A DNA stretch of 64,000 bases from Escherichia coli 042. GTDB lineage: Bacteria > Pseudomonadota > Gammaproteobacteria > Enterobacterales > Enterobacteriaceae. Below the pieces are notes generated by a model. That model was not told where the DNA came from. It did no database searches and was given only the letters and a program-made list of their open reading frames with translations. Positions 14,563-28,402 of this stretch are shown piece after piece. The translations under genes were made by a program, and so were the position numbers. Position 1 is the stretch's first letter. The number at the start of each line of letters is the position of its first letter. The stretch is from NCBI RefSeq assembly GCF_000027125.1, contig NC_017626.1. One strand, given 5' to 3'.

Positions 14563-16548
14563 TTAATTTGGGGTTACGATATTCACCCACAAATCGAAAT
14601 TATCCAGACAGGCAATAATTTCTTCCAGTTTCGCGCCATTGCCAATAATTTTGGCTTTCTTCGCTTTTACCAGATCCGCCATTTTGGCTTGTGCGGTCAG
14701 CACGGCGTGAAGATCTTCACGGCTGATGTAGAAAGAGGCGTTGGCTTCAGGTTGCAGCGTTTTACGGTAGTTAAGCACGCTATCGTTCAGCGTCAGGTTG
14801 AGGTTATCGCCGTTGCTCATATTGAAGTTCAGGCTGATATTCTTACCTGCGGCTTTCGCGCTATCGAGGCGAACGGCCATAAAGTCGAATAGCATTTCGA
14901 CCGACATTCCGCGAAGGGTGTCCGGGAAACCGGTGGAGCTGTGGCTGAACTTATGTACCCCTTCGCGCAGCTCTTTCGCGCCGGTCAGGTAGAAACCGCG
15001 CCAGGTGGCGGACTCGGCCTGATAGCCCAGCTGTTCAAAGTTATTCGCTTGCAGATTCTTCGCGACCTGGTCACCAGGGTTGGCGGCAATCACCTGTTTC
15101 AGCAGTTCTGCCGACCAGCGGTAATCACCTTGCTTGTTCGCTTCTTGCGCCAGGTTGATGACACGGGCAGAACCGCCCAGCGCCTGCACGTAACGTTTAC
15201 CCATCTCCACCTGACCATACGGATGCAGGTTAGCCGGGTTACCGTCGTAATAGCCAAGATAGAAGTTATACACCGCGCGGGCGTTGTGGCTGACAGAACC
15301 GTAATAGCCGCGGCTGGCCCAGTTATTGGCAAGCGCAGGCGGCAGCTTAATCATGTCGCCGATTTCATTCATGGTGTAGCCCTGGTTTGCCAGGTGCAGG
15401 GTCTGGTCGTGAATGTACTTGATGGTATCGCGATATTTACCAATATAATCATTGATATGCTTATTGCCCCAGACCGGCCAGGTGTGCGGCATAAACAGTA
15501 CTTCCGCGTCATTACCCCACATATCCAGCGTTTCGTTCAGATACTCGGTCCACTTGCTGGTGTCGCGGGTTTTCGCGCCGCGCAGAGTGTAGAAGTTGTG
15601 CAGGGTATGCGTGGCGTTCTCGGCGGTACACAGGGCTTTCAGAGCCGGAATATAGAAGTGCATTTCGGCTGGCGCTTCGCTACCCGGAGTCATCAGGAAG
15701 TCAAATTCCAGGCCGTCGATAATCATCTTCTCGCCAGTTCTGACGATAGTTTTAGTCGGTGCAATAATGCTCGGGTCGCCCGTTGCCAGCGTCACGCCCA
15801 GGCCGTTGCCCACGTTGCCTTGCGCGTTGTGCGGCAGTAACAGACCGTAAGAGTAGAGCGCACGGCGGCTCATGATGTTACCCGCCAGCACGTTTTCGCT
15901 GATGGCTTCGTCCATAAAGCCTGCCGGAGCGATCACCTGCACTTTGCCGGATTTAACATCCGCTTCAGAGATAATGCCTTTCACACCGCCATAATGGTCG
16001 GCGTGGCTGTGGGTGTAAATCACAGCAACAATCGGTTTTTGCGGACGATGCTGGAAGTAAAGGTCAAGTGCGGCTTTTGCGGCAGGCGGCGTCACCAGCG
16101 GGTCGATAACAATAATGCCTTTTTCGCCTTCTACAAATGTAACGTTAGAGATATCTTGGCCGCGCACCTGATACATTTTATCGGTGACTTTGAACAGGCC
16201 AGAAATACCGTTGATTTGCGACTGACGCCACAGGCTGGGGTTTACGGTTTCCGGCGCAGCGGCATTAATATCAAATTTGTAATCGTCTGCGCGGTAGTAA
16301 ACTTTACCGTTCGCATCACGCAGAATACCTTCATCCAGCAGCGGGGCGATAAATCCACGCTGGGCATCGTCAAAATCTTGACGATCGCTAAACGGTAATG
16401 ATTTGGCGTAATTCTGATTAATCTGTTGGGTATATTGAGTGGCGGCTTTCGCTTCCTCTTTCGCGTTAGCGGTATTTACCATCATGCCGCTGGCGGCAGT
16501 TAACGCAATAACAATCCTGCTCAAACGGAATAACCGAGAGTTATTCAT
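14563..16548 (-). CDS. yjcS: Alkyl/aryl sulfatase, metallo-beta-lactamase fold
   Basis: Signal peptide; HSHADH zinc-binding motif ([11 protein letters not shown]); start taken at the second in-frame Met region (MNNSRLF...); track ORF is 665 aa. Confidence 0.9.
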
Positions 16549-16800
16549 ATAAATCTCCATTTATCATTTATGTCGTAAATATGTAGTCCATGCAAAATAC
16601 GTCATTTGAAGCTGGCGTTATCATAATTGGGAATTTGCGACTTTAATAAGTGGAAGTGTGAGCGGAGCGAGCCATTTTATTAGGCATTTGTGCTGAAGAG
16701 GGAAAAGTACGCGAATTTATTATCTCTGTAAATAATATGAGGTATTTTATATATTTATTATATATATTGTACTTCGGCAAATACTGAGCACAATTAATCA

Positions 16801-17118
16801 ATGCAACCGGTGTTTCTTTTTAAAAAACGTACCGGAGCAATGGGCGGTCATGTCGCTGGCACCGCAGGATTCTGTGTTGCTGTGCCAACCTTTTATTCAT
16901 GGTCAATGAGTGAGGGGATTGATAAAGAAACCAGGTCGTCAGAGCGCACTGATTATCCGCATTACGCCAGTGACGTTGCACTGGCTTTTGGTTCACGAGT
17001 GGTTGGCCTCGAACTGGCAAAAATGATTGTGGATGCGTGGCTGGGCGCGCAGTACGAATGCGGTCGTCATCAACAACGCGTGGAGGCGATTACGGCAATA
17101 GAGCAGCGGAAAAATTGA
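16801..17118 (+). pseudogene. rpiB: Degenerate remnant of ribose-5-phosphate isomerase B (rpiB) with internal deletion and non-homologous 5' part
   Basis: 105 aa ORF contains SSERTDYPHYAS...VALA joined directly to FGSRVVGLELAKMIVDAWLGAQYE.GRHQQRVEAITAIEQR, which I recall as RpiB residues about 36-53 and 107-149; the catalytic middle is absent. Confidence 0.6.
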
Positions 17119-17186: not shown

Positions 17187-17516
17187 ATGAAACGCTTTCC
17201 GCTATTTCTTTTATTCACCCTGCTCACGCTGTCCACCGTTCCGGCCCAGGCCGATATTATCGACGACACCATTGGCAATATTCAGCAGGCGATTAACGAT
17301 GCTTATAACCCTGACCGTGGGCGAGACTATGAAGATTCGCGCGACGACAGCTGGCAGCGTGAAGTGAACGACGATCGGCGCAGACAATATGACGATCGCC
17401 GCCGCCAGTTTGAAGATCGCCGCAGGCAGCTGGACGATCGCCAGCGCCAGCTTGATCAGGAGCGTCGGCAACTGGAGGATGAAGAGCGGAGAATGGAAGA
17501 TGAGTATGGGCGGTGA
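17187..17516 (+). CDS. yjdP: Secreted charged-repeat protein YjdP
   Basis: 109 aa; signal peptide (MKRFPLFLLFTLLTLSTVPAQA); tandem DDRRRQ-type repeats; GAGG RBS upstream. Confidence 0.8.
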   Translation: MKRFPLFLLFTLLTLSTVPAQADIIDDTIGNIQQAINDAYNPDRGRDYEDSRDDSWQREVNDDRRRQYDDRRRQFEDRRRQLDDRQRQLDQERRQLEDEERRMEDEYGR

Positions 17517-17550
17517 TGTTGAGTCTAGAGCAGGCATCGCCCCTCACCCA

Positions 17551-18321
17551 TCACTCCACCCCAATCTCCACCCCAATCTCCATCCCATCAAACCCCGCCT
17601 CAAACCCCGACGGCAGTGCGTTTTCCATCAGCCACGCATCAAACTGGTGGCTGATATGGGTCAGAATCACCCGTGGCGAGCGGATAACCTGATTCAGCGC
17701 AAGCACGGTATTTAAATCACAGTGATTACGCGGTGCATCCTCGCGCGGCGGGTGGCTGCAATCAATCACCATTACCTGTGGCTGATTATTGCGTAAAAAT
17801 TTCAGCGTTTTTTCCGGCAGGCCTGCGGTGTCAGACAGCCACGCCACCCGGCTATGTGCCGTTTCCAGTAAATAGCCGAAAGTGAGTTTCGAATGATTGA
17901 GCGGCAGCGGCGTGACCTGTAATCCCTGCAAATCAAACACTACAAACGGTTCCACCGTGTGGCTGAAATCAAGCAGGCCCGGATGTTTAAACAGATCGTC
18001 GCAGCCCTGTTCATCCGGCGGGCCGTAGACCGGGATCGAATCGCCCACGCCCCAGCGCAGCGGAAACAGCCCCTGCACGTGATCCATATGGTAGTGCGTC
18101 AGCAAAAACTGCTGGAACGATCCGGGCGACCAGCGATCGGCGAGATCGTGCAGCCCGGCGTCGATCAGGGTGATCGCGTCGTTAAACTTCACGACGCCGC
18201 TGCATGGCTGGCGGCGATACTGTGGTGAGCGCCGCGCTCTGACGCAGGCCGCGCACTCGCAGCCCCATGCCGGAACGCCCTGTGCGCCGCCGGTGCCGGT
18301 GAGCGTGAGGGTCAGACTCAT
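17551..18321 (-). CDS. phnP: PhnP, phosphoribosyl 1,2-cyclic phosphate phosphodiesterase
   Basis: 256 aa metallo-beta-lactamase fold (HYHMDH); last gene of the phn operon; C-terminus carries a 12-bp tandem duplication. Confidence 0.9.
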
Positions 18322-18322
18322 G

Positions 18323-18757
18323 TTACAGCGCCTTGGTGAAGCGGAAGTGACTCTGCTCGTAGCCTTCTCGCAGATAGAAACGGTGCGCGTCGTGGCGCTT
18401 CACGTTGGTCGAAAGCTCAGTCATTTCGGCCCCGGCCTGGCGGGCTTCTTCTTCTGCCCACGCCAGCAACTTGCTACCGACGTTCAGGCCGCGCGCCTGC
18501 GGCATCACCACCAACTCCTGAATTTCGCCGATCCAGTTGACATGATGCAGATGAAACTGCAAATGCAGGCCGATCATGCCGACAACTTCGCCATCCAGTA
18601 GCGCCAGATGGTAGCGCATGTTTGGGTCGCGCAGGTTGGCGTTAAAGCCCACGCGAAACGCGTGGTGGTCAAACTCCGCCTGTTTTAGCTCACAAATCAG
18701 CGCGTAAACTGCGTCGGTGTCGTACTGCGTAGCCGGGCGAAGCTCACAAGCAGGCAT
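18323..18757 (-). CDS. phnO: PhnO, aminoalkylphosphonate N-acetyltransferase
   Basis: 144 aa GNAT-fold protein; operon position. Confidence 0.9.
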
Positions 18758-19301
18758 GGTGTTTCTCCTTCTGATGAATCAGCGTCAGCAGCTTGTCGAC
18801 CGACTGGCGCAGGCTGCCGTCATTATTGAGCGTAAGACAATCCTGAGGAGTATAGCGGGCAGCGCGTGCCAGTCGGGCGTTAATTTCACTGGCATTTTCA
18901 CGACCACGGTTTTCGAGGCGCTGGCGCAGGATCTCCGGCGAAACCTGTAAACAAACGGGCAGCAGCGCCGATTGATAGCGCGCCCGCGCCTGCGGCAGAT
19001 GGGCGCGTGAGCCGTTGACCATCACGTCAAATCCAGCGTGCAGCCAGAGGTCAATCTCGACGCCGATGCCATAATACAGGCCGTTGGCGTGCCAGCTTAA
19101 GGCCAGAAGGTTCTGCCCCGCGCGGGTAAAAAACTCCTGCTCGCTCAGGGCGATATGGTTTTCACTTCCGGCGCTGGCGGCGCGCGTGATGTAGCGATGC
19201 GCTACCAGTAGCTGAGTTTGTTCCCGCTGGCGAAGTTCCGTCAACAGACTGTCTTTTCCGGAGCCAGAGGCCCCCATTAACCAAATCAGTTTTCCCGTCA
19301 T
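18744..19301 (-). CDS. phnN: PhnN, ribose 1,5-bisphosphate phosphokinase
   Basis: 185 aa with P-loop (GASGSGKDS); overlaps phnO and phnM. Confidence 0.9.
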
Positions 19302-20437
19302 CAGAACACCCTTTTACCCTGACGCCAGACGTGGTCGATATGAATGTGGTTGCCCTTGCGATGCGCCAGCACCAGGTCGGCGCGTTTGCCCTCGCCAATC
19401 ACCCCGCGATCCTGAAGATTAAGCGCCTGCGCCGGATTTTTAGTCACCAGCTTCACCGCCTGCGGCAGCGTAAAGCGGTTGCTCTCGTCATCGGCGACGC
19501 GAAATGCCGCATCGAGCAGGCTGGCGGGGTAGTAGTCGGAAGAGAGGATATCCAGCAGGCCAAGCTGCGCCAGTTCACTGGCCGCCACGTTGCCGGAGTG
19601 CGAACCGCCGCGCACGATATTCGGCGCGCCCATCAGCACGTTCATGCCATGCTTGCGCGAGGCTTCTGCCGCTTCGAACGTGGTGGGAAATTCGGCGATC
19701 ACGCTGCCAAGCTGGTGGGATTCGGCAACGTGCGCGTGCGTGGCGTCATCGTGGCTGGCGAGGGCAATGTGTCGCGCGCGGCACATTGCGGCGATGGTTT
19801 CGCGATTTGGCTGCGACCAGCGTGCGGCGAGCGCCAATTGCTCTTCTTCGTACTGCTGCATCTGCGCATCGGTGAGGGAATATTTGCCCTGATAATATTC
19901 GCGATACTTCTCGCGATTGGCGAACTGGCGCTGGCCTGGCGAGTGGTCCATCAGCGATACCAGCGTCACCGGTTCGCGCTGCACCAGTTTTTCAAACAGC
20001 GGCAACGTGGTGTGGTGCGGCAGTTCGCAGCGCAGGTGCAGGCGGTGCTCGGCGCGGTTGACGCCGCGTTTCTGCGTCTCTTCGATGGCGTTGATCATCT
20101 TCTCCAGATTCTCCAGCCGATCGCCGCCGTCGCGCACATCACCAATCGCCACGGCGTCCAGTACGGTGGTGATGCCGCTTGCCACCATCAGCGCGTCGTG
20201 GCTGCTCATCGCCGAATGGGCGGGCCAGTCGACTTTCGGGCGCGGGGTGAAGAATTTATCGAGGTTGTCGGTATGCAGCTCAATCAGGCCGGGTAGTAGC
20301 CAGCCACCTTCGCCGTCCATCGCTTCCGGCTGGCGGCTCTGGCTTTCGGCAAAGGCGCGAATTTCGCCATCCTGTACTTCCAGTGAACCGTGCACCACTT
20401 CGTTTTCCAGCACCAGTTTGACGTTATTGATAATCAT
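19301..20437 (-). CDS. phnM: PhnM, RPnTP diphosphatase (amidohydrolase fold)
   Basis: 378 aa; operon position; overlapping stop/start with neighbours. Confidence 0.9.
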
Positions 20438-21114
20438 GAAGAGGCTCCCATCGGGTGCAGGCGGTCGGCGACGTCATTGCGTACGGCTTCGTCATGGAAG
20501 ATACCGACGATGGCTGCGCCACGGGCTTTAGCTTCGAGAATCAGTTCCACCACCGCGGCGCTGTTTTTGGCGTCCAGCGAGGCGGTAGGTTCGTCGAGCA
20601 GCAGAATGGGGTAGTCGACGATAAAGCCACGGGCGATGTTGACGCGCTGCTGTTCGCCGCCGGAGAAGGTCGATGGTGCAAGGTGCCACAGGCGTTCAGG
20701 CACGTTCAGGCGCGTCAGTAATCGGGCGGCTTTAGCGGCGCAGGCTTCACGCGGTACGCCGGTATCGAGCAGAGGCTGCATCACCACTTCCAGTGCCGAA
20801 ATACGCGGGATGACGCGCAGAAACTGGCTCACCCAGCCGATGGTGGTTTTGCGGATCTCCACCACTTTGCGGGCTGGCGCGGTGACCAGGTCTACCCATT
20901 CCTCACCGTGTTTGATCTGGATTTGCCCTTCGTCGGGCAGATAGTTGGCGTACAGCGAGCGCAGCAGGGTTGATTTTCCGCTGCCGGAGTGGCCGTGAAG
21001 CACCACGCATTCGCCTGCGTTGACGGTGAGCGAGGCACGTTGTAAGACGGGCAGGCGCACGCCGTTTTGCTGGTGCAGGATGAAGGTTTTACTGACGTTT
21101 TGTACGTTAATCAT
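20434..21114 (-). CDS. phnL: PhnL, ATP-binding component of C-P lyase complex
   Basis: Start chosen at [11 protein letters not shown] (226 aa) inside the 240-aa track ORF; Walker [10 protein letters not shown]. Confidence 0.9.
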
Positions 21115-21157
21115 TTTTCGCCTCGTGGTTCGCATATTGGGGATCGGCGCGCGCATT

Positions 21158-21207
21158 GCCCCTCACCCTAGCCCTCTCCCCTCTGGGGAGAGGGCCGGGG
21201 TGAGGGG
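21158..21207. repeat. GC-rich imperfect palindromic element (boxC-like) between phnL and phnK
   Basis: cccctcaccctagccctctcccctctggggagagggccggggtgagggg forms nested inverted repeats; a related sequence recurs at 26472-26558. Confidence 0.7.
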
Positions 21208-21230
21208 ACCAGCGCGCACGGTGTTGCAAC

Positions 21231-21989
21231 TCAATTCTGCAAAACCGATGACACCAGCAGCTGGGTATACGGATGATGCGGGTCGTCGAGCACGCGGTCG
21301 GTTAACCCACTCTCCACTACTTGCCCCTGCTTCATCACCAGCAAACGGTCCGCCAGCAGGCGGGCGACGCCAAGATCGTGGGTAACAATCACTACCGCCA
21401 GGTTCAGCTCCACCACCAGGCCGCGCAGCAGGTCGAGCAGGCGCGCCTGCACCGACACATCCAGCCCGCCGGTTGGTTCGTCCATAAACACCAGCTTCGG
21501 ATGCGTCACCAGGTTGCGGGCAATCTGCAAACGCTGCTGCATGCCGCCGGAAAAGGTGGTTGGCAGGTCGTCGATCCGGTTAGCGGGAATCTCGACCTCT
21601 TCCAGCCACTTCTGCGCGGTGGCGCGAATATCGCCGTAATGACGCGCCCCGGTCGCCATCAGCCGCTCGCCGATATTGCCGCCTGCCGACACCTGGCGGC
21701 GCAGGCCGTCGAGCGGATGCTGATGCACCACGCCCCATTCGGTGCGCAGCAGGCGACGGCGATCGGCCTCGCTCATGCCATAGAGGGAACGGTTTTCATA
21801 GTGAATCTCCCCTTGCTGCGGCGTCAGACGCGCGGAAATTGATTTCAGCAGCGTGGTCTTCCCGGAGCCGGACTCCCCGACGATGCCCAGCACTTCCCCC
21901 GGCCATAAATCAAAAGAGACATCGCTAAAGCCTTTGCCCGGCGCGTAAAGGTGGGTCAGGTTATTGACCGAAAGTAAAGGTTGATTCAT
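21231..21989 (-). CDS. phnK: PhnK, ATP-binding component of C-P lyase complex
   Basis: Start chosen at MNQPLLSVNNL (252 aa); Walker A GESGSGKTT; ABC signature. Confidence 0.9.
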   Translation of the reverse strand: MNQPLLSVNNLTHLYAPGKGFSDVSFDLWPGEVLGIVGESGSGKTTLLKSISARLTPQQGEIHYENRSLYGMSEADRRRLLRTEWGVVHQHPLDGLRRQVSAGGNIGERLMATGARHYGDIRATAQKWLEEVEIPANRIDDLPTTFSGGMQQRLQIARNLVTHPKLVFMDEPTGGLDVSVQARLLDLLRGLVVELNLAVVIVTHDLGVARLLADRLLVMKQGQVVESGLTDRVLDDPHHPYTQLLVSSVLQN

Positions 21990-22831
21990 TGGTTTTTTGC
22001 CTCGCTCTGTTGGCGGCAATAATCGGTATCGGAGCAGACAAACATGCGGTTTCCGGCGTCATCCAGCACCACTTCGTCGAGATAGCTGTGGGTCGATCCG
22101 CAGATGGCGCATGGCTCATCCCACTGCTGAACGGTGAACGGGTGATCGTCGAAATCGAGGCTTTCCACGCGGGTAAACGGCGGCACCGCATAGATGCGCT
22201 TCTCGCGTCCTGCGCCGAACAGCTGCAGGGCGGGCATCATGTTCATTTTCGGATTATCGAATTTTGGGATCGGCGATGGGTCCATGACGTAGCGCCCGTT
22301 CACCTTCACCGGATAGGCATAAGTGGTGGCGATATGACCGAAGCGGGCGATATCTTCATACAGTTTCACCTGCATCACGCCGTACTCCTCCAGCGCGTGC
22401 ATAGTGCGGGTTTCCGTTTCGCGCGGCTCGATAAAGCGCAGCGGTTCCGGGATCGGTACCTGGAAAATAATGATCTGATCTTCGGTCAGCGACGTTTCGG
22501 GGATGCGGTGGCGGGTCTGGATAAGCGTCGCATCGTCCGTACGTTCAGTGGTGTTTACCCCGGTCACGCGCTTAAAGAAGTTGCGAATTGATACGGCGTT
22601 GGTGGTGTCATCCGCACCCTGGTCAATCACCTTCAACACGTCGCTTTCGCCAATCACGCTGGCGGTAAGCTGGATACCACCAGTTCCCCAGCCGTACGGC
22701 ATCGGCATCTCGCGCCCGCCAAACGGCACCTGATAACCGGGGATCGCCACCGCTTTTAAGATGGCGCGGCGGATCATGCGTTTGGTCTGCTCGTCGAGGT
22801 AGGCAAAGTTGTAGCCGCTCAGATTAGCCAT
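21986..22831 (-). CDS. phnJ: PhnJ, C-P lyase catalytic subunit (radical SAM-like, Cys cluster)
   Basis: Start chosen at MANLSGYNFAYLDEQ (281 aa); C-terminal CxxCGSxxxYLDE cysteine motif. Confidence 0.9.
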   Translation of the reverse strand: MANLSGYNFAYLDEQTKRMIRRAILKAVAIPGYQVPFGGREMPMPYGWGTGGIQLTASVIGESDVLKVIDQGADDTTNAVSIRNFFKRVTGVNTTERTDDATLIQTRHRIPETSLTEDQIIIFQVPIPEPLRFIEPRETETRTMHALEEYGVMQVKLYEDIARFGHIATTYAYPVKVNGRYVMDPSPIPKFDNPKMNMMPALQLFGAGREKRIYAVPPFTRVESLDFDDHPFTVQQWDEPCAICGSTHSYLDEVVLDDAGNRMFVCSDTDYCRQQSEAKNQ

Positions 22832-23888
22832 GGTTCTGCTCCTGTTGCAGACGTTTGAGTAGCTCCAGTTCGGCCTGGAAATCGACGTAGTGCGGGAGTT
22901 TAAGGTGCGAGACAAAGCCTGCGGCTTCGACGTTGTCGGCATGCGCCAGCACGAACTCTTCATCCTGCGCCGGGCCTGTCGCGTGCTCGCCGTACTCCGG
23001 GGCTTGTAGAGCGCGGTCAACCAGCGCCATCGCCATCGCTTTGCGCTCGCTCATGCCGAACACCAGCCCGTAGCCGCGCGTGAAGTGCGGCGGCTCATCC
23101 GGCGGGTCGATAAAACCGTTGACCATTTCACATTCGGTCATCAGCAGTTCGCCGACGTTCACCGCAAATCCCAGCTCTTCCGGCACAATCGACACGTCGA
23201 TATAGCCGCTGCGGATTTCGCCTGCGAACGGATGATTGCGTCCGTAACCACGCTGGGTGGAGTAGGCCAGCGCCAGCAAATAGCCTTCGTCGCCGCGCAT
23301 TAATTGTTGCAGGCGGGAGGAGCGTGAGCAGGGGTAAACCGGCGGCGTGCGGGTGATGTCATCCGGCTGTGCGCCGCTATCCTCCTCAAACTTCGCCAGC
23401 CCCTGACGCGCCAGCAGGCTGAAAACGTGCGGCGACGGCTGTTGTGCGCTGTCGGCGGTGGTCAGCGTCGGCGCTTCGCCGTTTGCCAGCAGGGTGAAAT
23501 CGAGCAGGCGATGGGTGTAGTCGTAGGTTGGGCCAAGCAGCTGGCCGCCGGGAATATCTTTATAAACCGCTGAAATACGCCGTTCGAGACGCATCTCCGT
23601 GGTGTCGAGCGGCTCGCTTACCGCGAGCTTAGCCAGCGTGGTGCGGTAAGCGCGTAGCAGGAAAATCGCTTCGACGTTATCGCCGCTGGCCTGTTTCAGC
23701 GCCAGCGCCGCCAGTTCGCGGTCGGCAATGCCGCCTTCGGTCATCACGCGATCTACTGCAAGATTAAGCTGCTGTTCAATCTGGGCGACGCTCAGTTCAG
23801 GCAAATCGGTATTGCCCCGGCGTCGGCTCTCTTGCAGGGCGTGGGCGGCGTCGATCGCCTTCTCGCCCCCTTTCACGGCAACGTACAT
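22824..23888 (-). CDS. phnI: PhnI, C-P lyase core component (nucleosidase)
   Basis: Start chosen at [12 protein letters not shown] (354 aa) inside the 394-aa track ORF. Confidence 0.9.
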   Translation of the reverse strand: MYVAVKGGEKAIDAAHALQESRRRGNTDLPELSVAQIEQQLNLAVDRVMTEGGIADRELAALALKQASGDNVEAIFLLRAYRTTLAKLAVSEPLDTTEMRLERRISAVYKDIPGGQLLGPTYDYTHRLLDFTLLANGEAPTLTTADSAQQPSPHVFSLLARQGLAKFEEDSGAQPDDITRTPPVYPCSRSSRLQQLMRGDEGYLLALAYSTQRGYGRNHPFAGEIRSGYIDVSIVPEELGFAVNVGELLMTECEMVNGFIDPPDEPPHFTRGYGLVFGMSERKAMAMALVDRALQAPEYGEHATGPAQDEEFVLAHADNVEAAGFVSHLKLPHYVDFQAELELLKRLQQEQNHG

Positions 23889-24472
23889 CAGCACACCTCC
23901 ACATGAGTGGTTCGCGGGATAGCCAGCAGCCGCTCGCCGCAGGTCAGGATCAGGTCGATGCCGAGCGGGAACGGGTGCGGGCGCTCGGTAAGTTCGTGCA
24001 GAATGCACTCCGGCAGCTGCGGGGCGATCATTCGTTCTTCGGCAATACCCGCGCCAGTAAGGCGCAGCATGCGCCCGCCGCTCAGGCTGACGACCTGTAA
24101 AATCAGCGTCGCGCCCGCTTCTGGCGCAACAGCGGTGCCGCTGGAAAGGGCGTTAAGCTGTTCGCTGGAAATCGCCTCATCCGTTACCGCGAAGGTCGCC
24201 TGTTCCGGCTGGCTGACCAGCGGCGCGTTGGTATGAAAACGCAGGCTCTGGCTGACGATATCGTTACTTAATGGCGCAGAAAGCCACACCGGCGTGTCGT
24301 TATCGGCCAGCGTCAGCAGCACGCTGGTGGTGGCGATATTCAGTGGCTGCCAGCCGCGCTTGAGCTGATGCAGGGCGACAATCACGCCCGGCTCGCTCAT
24401 GGCCTTTAACAGGCGACGAAAACTGTGCTGGGCATCCTGCACGGGAAGCATAAAAGCGGTTTCCAGGGTCAT
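23888..24472 (-). CDS. phnH: PhnH, C-P lyase core component
   Basis: 194 aa; operon position with overlapping junctions. Confidence 0.9.
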
Positions 24473-24921
24473 GCGTTATCTCCGCGAACCATCGTAAAGA
24501 AGTCGACCCGGCTGGCGTTCACTTCGGCCTGGCGTGCGGCAATGCGTGCCATACGGTCAGCGTCCAGCGGGGCAATAAGGGTTTCTGATAAGTTTTGAAA
24601 ATGGCGGGTTTGCTGCATCAGCGCGTCAATCAGCGCGCAGCGTTCGGCGTGCTGTTTGTCGCGCCCCAGCACCCAGCTGTAGCCGAGCGTGCCGTCAGTC
24701 AGGCGTACGGTGGCGCGGGTGAGCGTGGCGTCGCCAGCAAAAAAGCGTTCGCCGGTGCCACCCATCCGCGCCTGAATCTGCACCAGGCCGGTTTCAGCGG
24801 CGCGGATTACTTCATAGTCGGCAGTGATGTTCAGCGCCTTCAGGCGGGCTGCCAGTTCAGCCGGTTGGCTGTGTGCCAGTACGGACATCCAGTGCTGGCG
24901 GGTCGCGGTATCTGCGTGCAT
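24469..24921 (-). CDS. phnG: PhnG, C-P lyase core component
   Basis: 150 aa; operon position. Confidence 0.9.
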
Positions 24922-25647
24922 TCAGTGCTCCATAGTGAATTCAATCATGTCGGCGCGCGTCAGGCTGACGGAGTACTCCGCCGGGCTGCTTTCACCGTCA
25001 CGGTGGTTAAGGGTGCGCACGCACAGCAGCGGCGACATATTCGGGATTTCAAGACGCTGGCACTCTTTGGCCTGGGCGCGGCGGGCGCTGATCCGCGTCT
25101 GGCTGCGGCGCAGCGCAATCCCCGTTTGCTCGCGCAGAAAATCGTGCAGCGAGCCGCTGTCGAAGCGTTGCAGCGTCGGCCAGAGGGTGAGGTCCGCAAA
25201 GTAGTGGTCGATTAAACAGAGCGCGACGCCGTTGACCCGGCGCAGGGTGCGCAGGTGGATAACGTTCTCGCCCTCGGTTATCCCCAGCGCGTCAGCGACG
25301 TGACCGGAGGCCGGGCGCAGCACCGACAGCAGTTTTTCGCTGGTGGGATGGCTGCCCTGATCCAGCAGGTTCTGGCTAAAACGCGCCTGGGCGTTGAGCG
25401 GGTAATCGAACGGGCGCATCAGTACCAGCACGCCGACGCCCTGACGGCGCTGTACCCAGCCTTTTTCCACCAGTTGGTCGATGGCGCGGCGCAGGGTGTG
25501 GCGGTTCACCTCAAAGCGCGCCGCCAGTTGCTGCTCGGCGGGAAGATAGTCGCCGCAGCGGTAGTGTTGACGAAGCTCCTGCTCAAGTTTTGCGGCTATC
25601 TCCTGATAGCGTGTTGGGTAGCTGGTCGGATGTGTAGACAAGTGCAT
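24922..25647 (-). CDS. phnF: PhnF, GntR-family transcriptional repressor of the phn operon
   Basis: 241 aa from MHLSTHPTSY...; GntR-type N-terminal HTH and UTRA-like C-terminal domain. Confidence 0.9.
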   Translation of the reverse strand: MHLSTHPTSYPTRYQEIAAKLEQELRQHYRCGDYLPAEQQLAARFEVNRHTLRRAIDQLVEKGWVQRRQGVGVLVLMRPFDYPLNAQARFSQNLLDQGSHPTSEKLLSVLRPASGHVADALGITEGENVIHLRTLRRVNGVALCLIDHYFADLTLWPTLQRFDSGSLHDFLREQTGIALRRSQTRISARRAQAKECQRLEIPNMSPLLCVRTLNHRDGESSPAEYSVSLTRADMIEFTMEH

Positions 25648-25667
25648 AGATATCAATGCCTCGCTTA

Positions 25668-26447
25668 TCAGATAAAGTGCTTACGCAACCGTTGAGAGAG
25701 GAAATCCAGCAGGCTGACCGTGACGATAATCAGCACCATCAGGGCGCAGGTTTGCTGGAACTGGAAACCGCGAATCGCTTCCCACAGCGTGACGCCGATC
25801 CCGCCCGCGCCGACCATGCCAACAACGGTGGCCGAACGGACGTTGGATTCGAAGCGATAGAGGGAGTAGGAGATCAGCAGCGGCATCACCTGCGGCAGCA
25901 CGCCGTAGAGGATCTCTTCGAGCTTGTTGGCACCGGTGGCGCGAATACCTTCCACCGGGCCGGGTTCAATTGCTTCTACCGCTTCGGAAAGCAGTTTGGA
26001 GAGCACGCCGGTGGTGTGGATAAACAGCGCCAGCACGCCAGCGAACGGGCCAAGGCCGACGGCGACCACGAACAGCATGGCGAAGACCATTTCGTTAATG
26101 GCGCGGCAGGCGTCCATCAGGCGGCGTACGGGCTGGTAAACCCACCACGGCACCAGGTTTTCGGCGCTCATCAGACCGAAGGGGATGGAGAGAACCACCG
26201 CCAGCGCGGTGCCCCAGACGGCGATTTGCAGCGTGACGGCCATTTCGGTGAGGTAATCCTGCCACTGGCTGAAATCGGGCGGGAAGAAGTCGGCGGCGAA
26301 GGTTGCCATGTTGCCGCCGTCTTTAATCAGCGTGAGCGGGGCCATTTCCGCGCCCTGCCACGAGACGACCAGCACGGCGAGAACAATGGCCCAGCTCAGA
26401 AGCGAGAACCAGCTGCGCTTGGGTGGGGCGATGGTGATGGTTTGCAT
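25668..26447 (-). CDS. phnE: PhnE, phosphonate ABC transporter permease (uninterrupted reading frame)
   Basis: Continuous 259-aa polytopic membrane ORF; no frameshift within the gene. Confidence 0.85.
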
Positions 26448-26471
26448 GTTTGGCTCCGTTTAATGTTTTCT

Positions 26472-26558
26472 CCCTCTCCCTGTGGGAGAGGGCCGGGGTG
26501 AGGGCATCAGCGTGCGCATTTTCCCCTCATCCTAACCCTCTCCCTCAAGGGAGAGGGG
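26472..26558. repeat. Two GC-rich palindromic elements (boxC-like) between phnE and phnD
   Basis: ccctctccctgtgggagagggccggggtgagggc and cccctcatcctaaccctctccctcaagggagagggg; same family as 21158-21207. Confidence 0.7.
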
Positions 26559-26572
26559 ACCGATCGAGCACA

Positions 26573-27589
26573 TTACTGCACCGCTTTACTCACCGAACTC
26601 ATCGCGCTTAACGCGTTGTTCAGGCGGTCCAGGTCATCCAGTTGCGCCTGAATGGCGCTGGTTTTTGCCAGCTTGTCCTGCTCATTCAGCCCTTTATTAC
26701 CTTTTACGCCCTGCATCTCTTTAAACAGTGCGAGTTGGCGAATCGGCACCAGTTGCAGGTCGCTGGAGGCGCGGAACGGGGCCCATCCCAGGCGCTCCAG
26801 CACCGCTTTCTCTTCCGGCGTTTTGCCGTAGTTCATAAAGAAGTCGTAGATCTTGTCTTTGGTGGTTTCGGACAGATTTTTGCGCCAGACGATCGGATCG
26901 CCTGGGATCAGCGGCGATTTCCAGATCACCTTCAGTTCTTTGAGCTTCTCCGGTGCGGAGGTTTTCAGCTTGTCGAGGTTTTCGGTGTTGTTGGTCGCCA
27001 CATCCACCTGTTTGTTGGCGACGGCCAGCGCGTTGGTTTCATGCCCGGCGTTGACGGTGCGCTTGAAGTCGCTGGCGGAGATATTGTTTTTGGCGAAGAC
27101 GTAGTAGCCGGGGACGAGGAAGCCAGAGGTGGAGTTAGGATCGCCATTGCCGAAGGTGAGATCTTTACGCTTCGCCAGCAGATCATTCAGGTTGTTGATC
27201 GGACTGTCTTTGTTGACGATCAACACGCTCCAGTAACCCGGCGATCCATCCGCCGCGACCGTCTGGGCGAAGACCTGACCGTTGGCGCGATCCACCGCTT
27301 CCATCGCCGACAGATTGCCGTACCAGGCGATATCCACTTTATTGAAGCGCATCCCCTGGATAATGCCCGCGTAGTCCGGGGCAAAGAAGGCGTTGACCTT
27401 TACGCCCAGCTTCTTCTCCATATCCTGTAAGAACGGAGTCCATTGCGGTTTCAGGTTTTGCTGTGATTCCGTTGAAATAATGCCGAAATTCAGCGCCTTT
27501 TCCTGCTCTTCGGCGTGCGCCGGGCTTAACAGGGTGCTGAGGCTGAACATGCTGGTGAAGGCCAGCGAGGCAATTATCTTAGCATTCAT
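26573..27589 (-). CDS. phnD: PhnD, periplasmic phosphonate-binding protein
   Basis: 338 aa with signal peptide; operon position. Confidence 0.9.
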   Translation of the reverse strand: MNAKIIASLAFTSMFSLSTLLSPAHAEEQEKALNFGIISTESQQNLKPQWTPFLQDMEKKLGVKVNAFFAPDYAGIIQGMRFNKVDIAWYGNLSAMEAVDRANGQVFAQTVAADGSPGYWSVLIVNKDSPINNLNDLLAKRKDLTFGNGDPNSTSGFLVPGYYVFAKNNISASDFKRTVNAGHETNALAVANKQVDVATNNTENLDKLKTSAPEKLKELKVIWKSPLIPGDPIVWRKNLSETTKDKIYDFFMNYGKTPEEKAVLERLGWAPFRASSDLQLVPIRQLALFKEMQGVKGNKGLNEQDKLAKTSAIQAQLDDLDRLNNALSAMSSVSKAVQ

Positions 27590-27613
27590 TCGTTTTCCTC
27601 AATGATGGGGATG

Positions 27614-28402
27614 TCAGGCAGCTTTCGCGTTTTCTTCGACGCGGTTGATGCTGCGGTAGAGATGGTCAAAACGTTCGTTATCAAACTGTTGGCTGCTGCC
27701 GTCGTAGAAGACGTGCCCCTGGCGCAGGGCGACGATGCGTTCGCAGTAGCGCAGGGCGTAATCCACCTGATGCAGCGTGACGACCACGGTAATGCCGTCG
27801 TTCTGGTTAATGTCGCGCAGGGTGTCCATCACGATGCGCGCCGATTCCGGGTCCAGCGAGGCGATGGGTTCGTCCGCCAGAATCACCTTCGCCTGCTGCA
27901 TCAGCGCGCGGGCAATCGCCACACGCTGCTGCTGTCCGCCGGAGAGGGTGGAAACTCGCTGATGGGCAAAGTGCACCATGCCAACGCGGGTCAGCGCCTG
28001 TAACGCGCGCTGTTTCTGCTCGCGGGTGAAGTAGCTAAAACAGGTGCGCCAGAATGGCGTGCTGCCGAGCGCGCCAATCAGCACGTTCTCCAGTACGCTC
28101 AGGCGATTCACCAGGTTGAATTGTTGGAAGATGTAGCCGGTATTGGCGCGGCTTTTGCGGATATCGCGGGCCAGGCGGCCTTCGCGCTGGACTGTGCGGC
28201 CCAGCAGCTCGATATGGCTACCGGCAGATTTATCGCCGGTAATCAAACCGCTTAAGTGACGTAAAAGGGTGGATTTGCCGGAACCCGACGGCCCAAGCAG
28301 AGCCACCATTTCACCGTGATGAATGTTCAGATCAACCGCGTGCAGCGCCTGATGCTGATTGAAGGTTTTGGCGAGCTTCTCGACACGGATAATCGTTTGC
28401 AT
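27614..28402 (-). CDS. phnC: PhnC, phosphonate ABC transporter ATPase
   Basis: 262 aa; Walker [10 protein letters not shown]; ABC signature LSGGQQQR. Confidence 0.9.

Follow-up and report, generated by a model that had tools for sequence, protein, structure and literature searches.

An in-frame 12-bp tandem duplication at the 3' end of phnP in a lineage of Escherichia coli

The sequence analysed is a stretch of 64 kb of Escherichia coli DNA, called the window below, and positions are those of the window unless another locus is named. The phnP gene lies on the minus strand and faces the convergent gene yjdP. The features at its 3' end are listed here.

17551..18321, minus strand: phnP coding sequence, 256 codons followed by a TGA stop at 17551-17553; last gene of the intact phnC-P operon
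17566..17577, minus strand: copy 1 of the 12-nt unit ATTGGGGTGGAG, codons I249 G250 V251 E252; equals the single copy of reference strains
17554..17565, minus strand: copy 2 of the 12-nt unit ATTGGGGTGGAG, codons I253 G254 V255 E256; the extra copy, missing in the references
17578..17582, minus strand: TGGAG pentamer (CTCCA on the plus strand), putative slippage microhomology, spanned by the period-12 run
17584..17607, minus strand: two degenerate 12-nt units, GGGTTTGAGGCG and GGGTTTGATGGG, residues GFEA and GFDG; place of independent 12-nt duplications in other E. coli
17537..17611, minus strand: G-run-rich tract, G4Hunter -1.6 (75 nt) and -1.76 (50 nt), the extreme of the window
17517..17550, no strand: spacer between the convergent genes yjdP and phnP, 34 nt, without the 100-124-nt palindromic insert of K-12, GF60 and 700481

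The sequence CTCCACCCCAAT is present twice at 17554-17577 as a 12-nt tandem, the plus strand there reading ctccaccccaat ctccaccccaat. A preliminary description of the window had reported a 12-bp tandem duplication at this place with ccaccccaatct as the unit; the duplication is real, and that unit is the same repeat in a register shifted by +2 bases (17556-17567 and 17568-17579). Its placement of the repeat at the phnP C-terminus, read as EIGV-EIGV, is likewise borne out, the unit occupying the last codons (residues 249-256). Two copies and the adjoining CTCCA form a perfect period-12 run of 29 nt (17554-17582), and TGGAG recurs with 12-nt spacing at 17566-17570 and 17554-17558. This run is the sole perfect tandem duplication with a period of 9-30 in the window. 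As chance model we used 60 simulations of a first-order Markov process, which gave on average 0.33 perfect tandem duplications (period 9-30) counted over any period; a period-12 run as long as that of the window occurred in none of the 60. TRF reports 17554-17587 with a period of 12, 2.8 copies and a score of 61, and the count reaches 2.8 through the adjacent unit on the upstream side, GATGGGATGGAG, a degenerate copy.

The phn operon is found as a contiguous minus-strand series of open reading frames from 17551 to 28402, with all phn reading frames present. The phnE gene is intact (259 aa, 25668-26447, minus strand), with one GCTGGCGC octamer and without the 8-bp insertion of K-12. Between phnL and phnK, the gap at 21157-21230 holds a palindrome of G and C runs, CCCCTCACCCCGGCCCTCTCCCCAGAGGGGAGAGGGCTAGGGTGAGGGG, which we take to resemble boxC-type repeats. 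Carriers of the 256-aa phnP differ in it: one locus (L005) lacks it, and in another (L007) a different REP-like element takes its place.

On the other side of phnP, the yjdP-phnP spacer is also 34 nt long in FDAARGOS_497, and the palindromic insert of K-12, GF60 and 700481 sits just after the phnP stop. Across the loci compared, the choice of GAG or GCG as final phnP codon goes with the presence or absence of this insert. The yjdP gene (17187-17516, plus strand) has a coding repeat of its own next to phnP, namely 21-bp tandem repeats at 17370-17452 in approximately 3-3.5 copies with 76-78% matches, which encode DDRRRQL of YjdP. Further along, the allose (als) operon is missing at 16561-17118, and yjcS (14563-16560) is followed directly by a reading frame of 105 aa (16801-17118). 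A clean alignment to K-12 rpiB is obtained only for the 3' portion of this frame, between about 16981 and its stop codon. Its start is, by eye, similar to early rpiB, which would suggest an internal deletion together with a 5' truncation. The 105-aa rpiB remnant is annotated likewise in GF60 and 700481.

In the C-P lyase pathway PhnP acts as phosphoribosyl 1,2-cyclic phosphate phosphodiesterase, hydrolysing 5-phosphoribosyl 1,2-cyclic phosphate, and phnP mutants cannot use phosphonate phosphorus and build up ribosyl 1,2-cyclic phosphate (PMC3463581). The window protein scores 428.2 bits against NCBIfam TIGR03307 of the metallo-beta-lactamase superfamily, above the equivalog cut-off of 272.25. 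The match pairs residues 3-248 with profile positions 1-248 of 249, so that the profile ends at residue 248. Solved structures of E. coli PhnP are 3G1P and 3P2U, and the window protein aligns to PDB 3G1P with E = 7e-176. When 27 homologues, the window protein among them, are aligned, residues H76, H78, D80, H81, H143, D164, H222, H225, C21, C23 and C26 are invariant; the HxHxDH motif, the Cys-rich zinc site and the other metal ligands are thus all conserved. Compared with the 252-aa PhnP of E. coli K-12 (3G1P, 3P2U), it is the same gene in the same operon position and with the same metallo-beta-lactamase fold, approximately 97-98% identical over residues 1-251 and with the metal-binding residues all kept. 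It differs in repeating EIGV and in ending in E instead of A.

For comparison with references we used K-12 JM109 and three other complete E. coli genomes. Their phnP is 759 nt long, encodes 252 aa and holds one copy of the unit, and the tails of the four proteins are GMEIGVA, GMVIGVE or GMEIEVA. EIGVEIGV was found in none of the references aligned. The earlier comparison of a 256-aa reading frame with 252 aa in K-12 was correct, the K-12 protein ending in GMEIGVA, and these one-copy references of 252 aa support the suggestion that a slipped-strand duplication added four residues, a mechanism that we infer from the sequence.

A region search matched 5,404 complete genomes, and the best of the full-length matches shows a gap of 12 nt precisely where the extra copy lies. 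When the last 200 nt of phnP were used as query, the top matches listed start at query base 16, after one copy, except for three genomes that carry other duplications. Among the matches listed, the EIGV duplication was not found in the complete E. coli genomes of the searched collection, this census being near-exhaustive only for alleles at least approximately 92% identical over the last 200 nt. Nor is (EIGV)2 present in any of the 133 other PhnP proteins retrieved (134 including that of the window). A scan of 100,044 species-representative genomes with a 26-nt pattern gave one match, in the MAG Gammaproteobacteria Glo_5 (L009, 6185-6240), and no match was obtained in JGI metagenome contigs. 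The Glo_5 match was rejected as a PhnP relative: the repeat lies in the gene of a TonB-dependent receptor with no relation to PhnP, which uses a different reading frame of the same DNA and gives (GGDW)n.

The coding strand of the phnP 3' tract can be written as GGGTTTGAGGCG / GGGTTTGATGGG / ATGGAGATTGGG / GTGGAG, i.e. with a periodicity of 12 nt. Other E. coli strains carry expansions in this tract, 18-40 nt upstream of the EIGV duplication. A20 and GF130 have GGGGTTTGAGGC twice (GFEA x2, 256 aa), A37 and Q5 have it three times (GFEA x3, 260 aa), and 700481 has TGGGGTTTGATG twice (VGFD x2), giving GFEVGFDVGFDG and again 256 aa. As in the window, these alleles are 12-nt in-frame tandem expansions within the last approximately 17 codons, in the same G-rich periodic tract. 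They differ from that of the window in units, registers and flanks, they stand on phnP backbones 48-49 nt different from it, and they lie inside the C-terminal hairpin, whereas the EIGV copy comes after it. They are also rarer in protein look-ups: the GFEA x2, GFEA x3 and VGFD x2 alleles each occur in further assemblies (3, 9 and 11 contigs read), against 175 blocks for the allele of the window. Because units, registers, backbones and flanks differ, the other expansions are independent events. On the alleles compared, the last approximately 17 codons, a tract of about 50 nt, would seem to be a minor hotspot of in-frame 12-nt expansions. In Q5, phnP (L015, 801-1585) has in addition two bases, GC, inserted at nt 39, which are unrelated to the expansion, and RefSeq describes the gene as frameshifted. 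No description of phnP C-terminal length variants was found in the literature; an E. coli pan-genome paper places phn genes including phnP among the loci with structural variation or high divergence (PMC12595684).

The effect of the extra residues on the enzyme was assessed from an AlphaFold model (27 homologues, mean pLDDT 85) and from the constructs used for crystallography. In the model the last beta-strand covers residues 248-251, i.e. the first EIGV, while residues 252-256 are coil of low confidence, with a pLDDT below 50 for 254-256. The first copy thus appears to stand where the last beta-strand of the native protein does, the second being modelled as a short flexible tail. Since the extra copy would hang off in this way, the 256-aa enzyme is expected to work normally and to behave like the 252-aa form. 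The deposited chains of 3G1P and 3P2U have HHHHHH directly after A252, and a six-residue C-terminal extension is therefore compatible with folding. C-terminally tagged PhnP enzyme is active. From the model and the tagged construct, the duplication is likely harmless and its effect nil.

An alternative is that the four additional residues alter PhnP function, e.g. stability, dimerisation or activity, and were selected in the lineage. The allele is fixed across moderately diverged assemblies, the otherwise intact operon implies that the gene is probably in use, and the hairpin motif G-x-E-A-G-[FY]-D-G-M-x-I is conserved across genera, all of which would fit such a role. Against this, the duplicate follows the last structural element as a coil modelled with low confidence, and a tag of six residues at the same position left a crystallisable enzyme. 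Hitch-hiking alone would moreover fix the allele in one clonal lineage, and the persistence in nature of three other insertions in the same stretch suggests tolerance and not selection. A selected change of function is on balance improbable.

As to the origin of the extra copy, the two copies are perfect and head to tail, and the unit is single-copy in relatives and outgroups, as expected of a slipped-strand duplication. The ancestral allele would have ended in ATGGAGATTGGGGTGGAGTGA, which is the window sequence minus one copy and has TGGAG twice, 12 nt apart; removing one copy in silico leaves TGGAG-ATTGGGG-TGGAG. The nascent strand may then have slipped from the second TGGAG back to the first, and re-copying of ATTGGGGTGGAG would yield exactly the observed sequence. 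Replication slippage, or an equivalent unequal exchange between the TGGAG pentamers, most likely occurred as one event. The nearest relatives end in GTGGCG or have ATGGTG ahead of the unit, and alleles ending in GTGGCG (K-12, GF60) offer a poorer repeat. The protein tail MEIGVE is found in nature only on a distant backbone (P0026), and by exact protein look-up the single-copy protein on the same backbone is not on record. Because the immediate single-copy ancestor with this protein backbone is not on record, the TGGAG...TGGAG substrate is a reconstruction. We also inspected the junctions for an origin of the 12 nt by imprecise excision of the downstream palindromic insert of K-12, GF60 and 700481. 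No simple deletion of this insert gives the observed sequence, and a plain tandem duplication is therefore the more parsimonious explanation.

The repeat could instead be a fast-switching VNTR, similar to a contingency locus, where the copy number flips often. The neighbouring GFEA unit does occur in 1, 2 and 3 copies in different strains, and the same operon holds a reversible slippage site: in K-12, an 8-bp slippage insertion in phnE makes the phn operon cryptic and is reversible under selection (PMC6469041). Both cases concern a short tandem repeat gained or lost by slippage, but the repeat in phnE is frameshifting, knocks out the permease and reverts, whereas that in phnP preserves the frame, stands at the end of the gene and gives no hint of switching. 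A 12-nt in-frame unit at the 3' end of the last gene, present in only two copies, makes no on/off switch; a change in its number neither shifts the frame nor alters the spacing of a promoter, and copy-number variation was seen only for the neighbouring GFEA unit, in another lineage. Exact protein look-up returned no three-copy protein on the same backbone and no K-12 PhnP with the same EIGV duplication, just as it returned no one-copy form, and an expansion of any kind was seen in only 5 of approximately 5,390 complete genomes. Being in frame, terminal and apparently stable, the phnP repeat does not behave as a contingency locus, and frequent switching is very unlikely. Judging from the alleles on record, the duplication looks like a single old event.

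Also to be considered is the G-richness of the tract; the next-best G4Hunter segments of the window reach 1.15-1.18. It might be a structure-prone, G-quadruplex-like hotspot that repeatedly makes PhnP length variants, some of which, when phosphate is limiting, would tune the stability of the enzyme or that of the operon mRNA at its 3' end. A relaxed G-quadruplex motif is present at 17540-17574, only when loops of up to 12 nt are allowed; the tract holds no canonical motif with N1-7 loops, and ViennaRNA folding with G-quadruplexes enabled predicts none in it. The RNA fold of the repeat region is unremarkable (z = -1.1), and no promoter-like or terminator-like site touching the repeat was found. 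There is little chance that such a tuning hotspot exists.

The direction of the event was judged from relatives and outgroups. A length of 252 aa, with one tail of five residues following DGM, is nearly universal among the full-length cluster representatives of PhnP in Escherichia, Citrobacter, Klebsiella, Enterobacter, Salmonella and other Enterobacteriaceae. Of the complete genomes in the collection, GF60 has the closest allele, with one copy and 10 differences in the first 744 nt; its syntenic locus has phnL-P annotated and shares the als deletion of the window. Since the references, nearly all enterobacterial outgroups and GF60 have one copy, the two-copy EIGV state is derived. Slippage deletes as readily as it duplicates, yet that two copies were ancestral and one was lost in K-12 and other strains is scarcely credible when essentially all full-length PhnP of other enterobacterial genera, and the closest relative with the same als deletion, have the single-tail form.

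In the position index of the collection, 175 blocks list this exact protein of 256 aa. The count over NCBI, ENA and Logan sources is 94 contigs, and one of the assemblies with it is a metagenome scaffold. It is named E. coli PhnP in the public protein collection, under accessions such as CBG37281.1. The carrier loci that were fetched have the neighbourhood of the window, namely phnO next to one end of phnP and, beyond the other end, yjdP, the 105-aa rpiB remnant and yjcS. Of these four loci, two are only 1-2 SNPs from the window over 6.7 kb; the other two have 0 and 11 SNPs over the same length, and their phnK-phnL repeat element is different or absent. Because the same protein and neighbourhood recur in many independent assemblies, the allele is not an assembly error: short tandem repeats are occasionally miscalled, but independent recurrence of an identical protein and neighbourhood from several sources leaves a sequencing or assembly artefact with practically no probability. 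The 256-aa phnP is an inherited allele of a moderately diversified lineage, with the duplication now fixed in this one minority lineage of E. coli.

We therefore have considerable confidence in a genuine, heritable in-frame 12-bp duplication (ATTGGGGTGGAG x2) that arose once by slippage or exchange in one lineage, is neutral or nearly so, and is one of several independent expansions. Within this reading, the duplication itself, its lack in references and outgroups, its recurrence across independent assemblies and the other expansions are observed, and the slippage mechanism and the neutrality are what we infer. The duplication is ordinary, a lineage-specific, probably neutral slippage polymorphism.

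The duplication matters as a lineage marker and as an annotation-length difference (256 against 252 aa) in a well-characterised enzyme, and has little wider biological weight. As a natural case, it illustrates cleanly how slippage can leave the frame intact in a coding tract that is short, G-rich and periodic. What is new beyond the preliminary description is that the same 50-nt tract has been expanded independently several times in E. coli: the C-terminal hairpin and tail of this enzyme of the metallo-beta-lactamase fold tolerate four or more independent expansions of 12 nt. The phnP length variants could be used as simple markers in typing the lineages that carry them.
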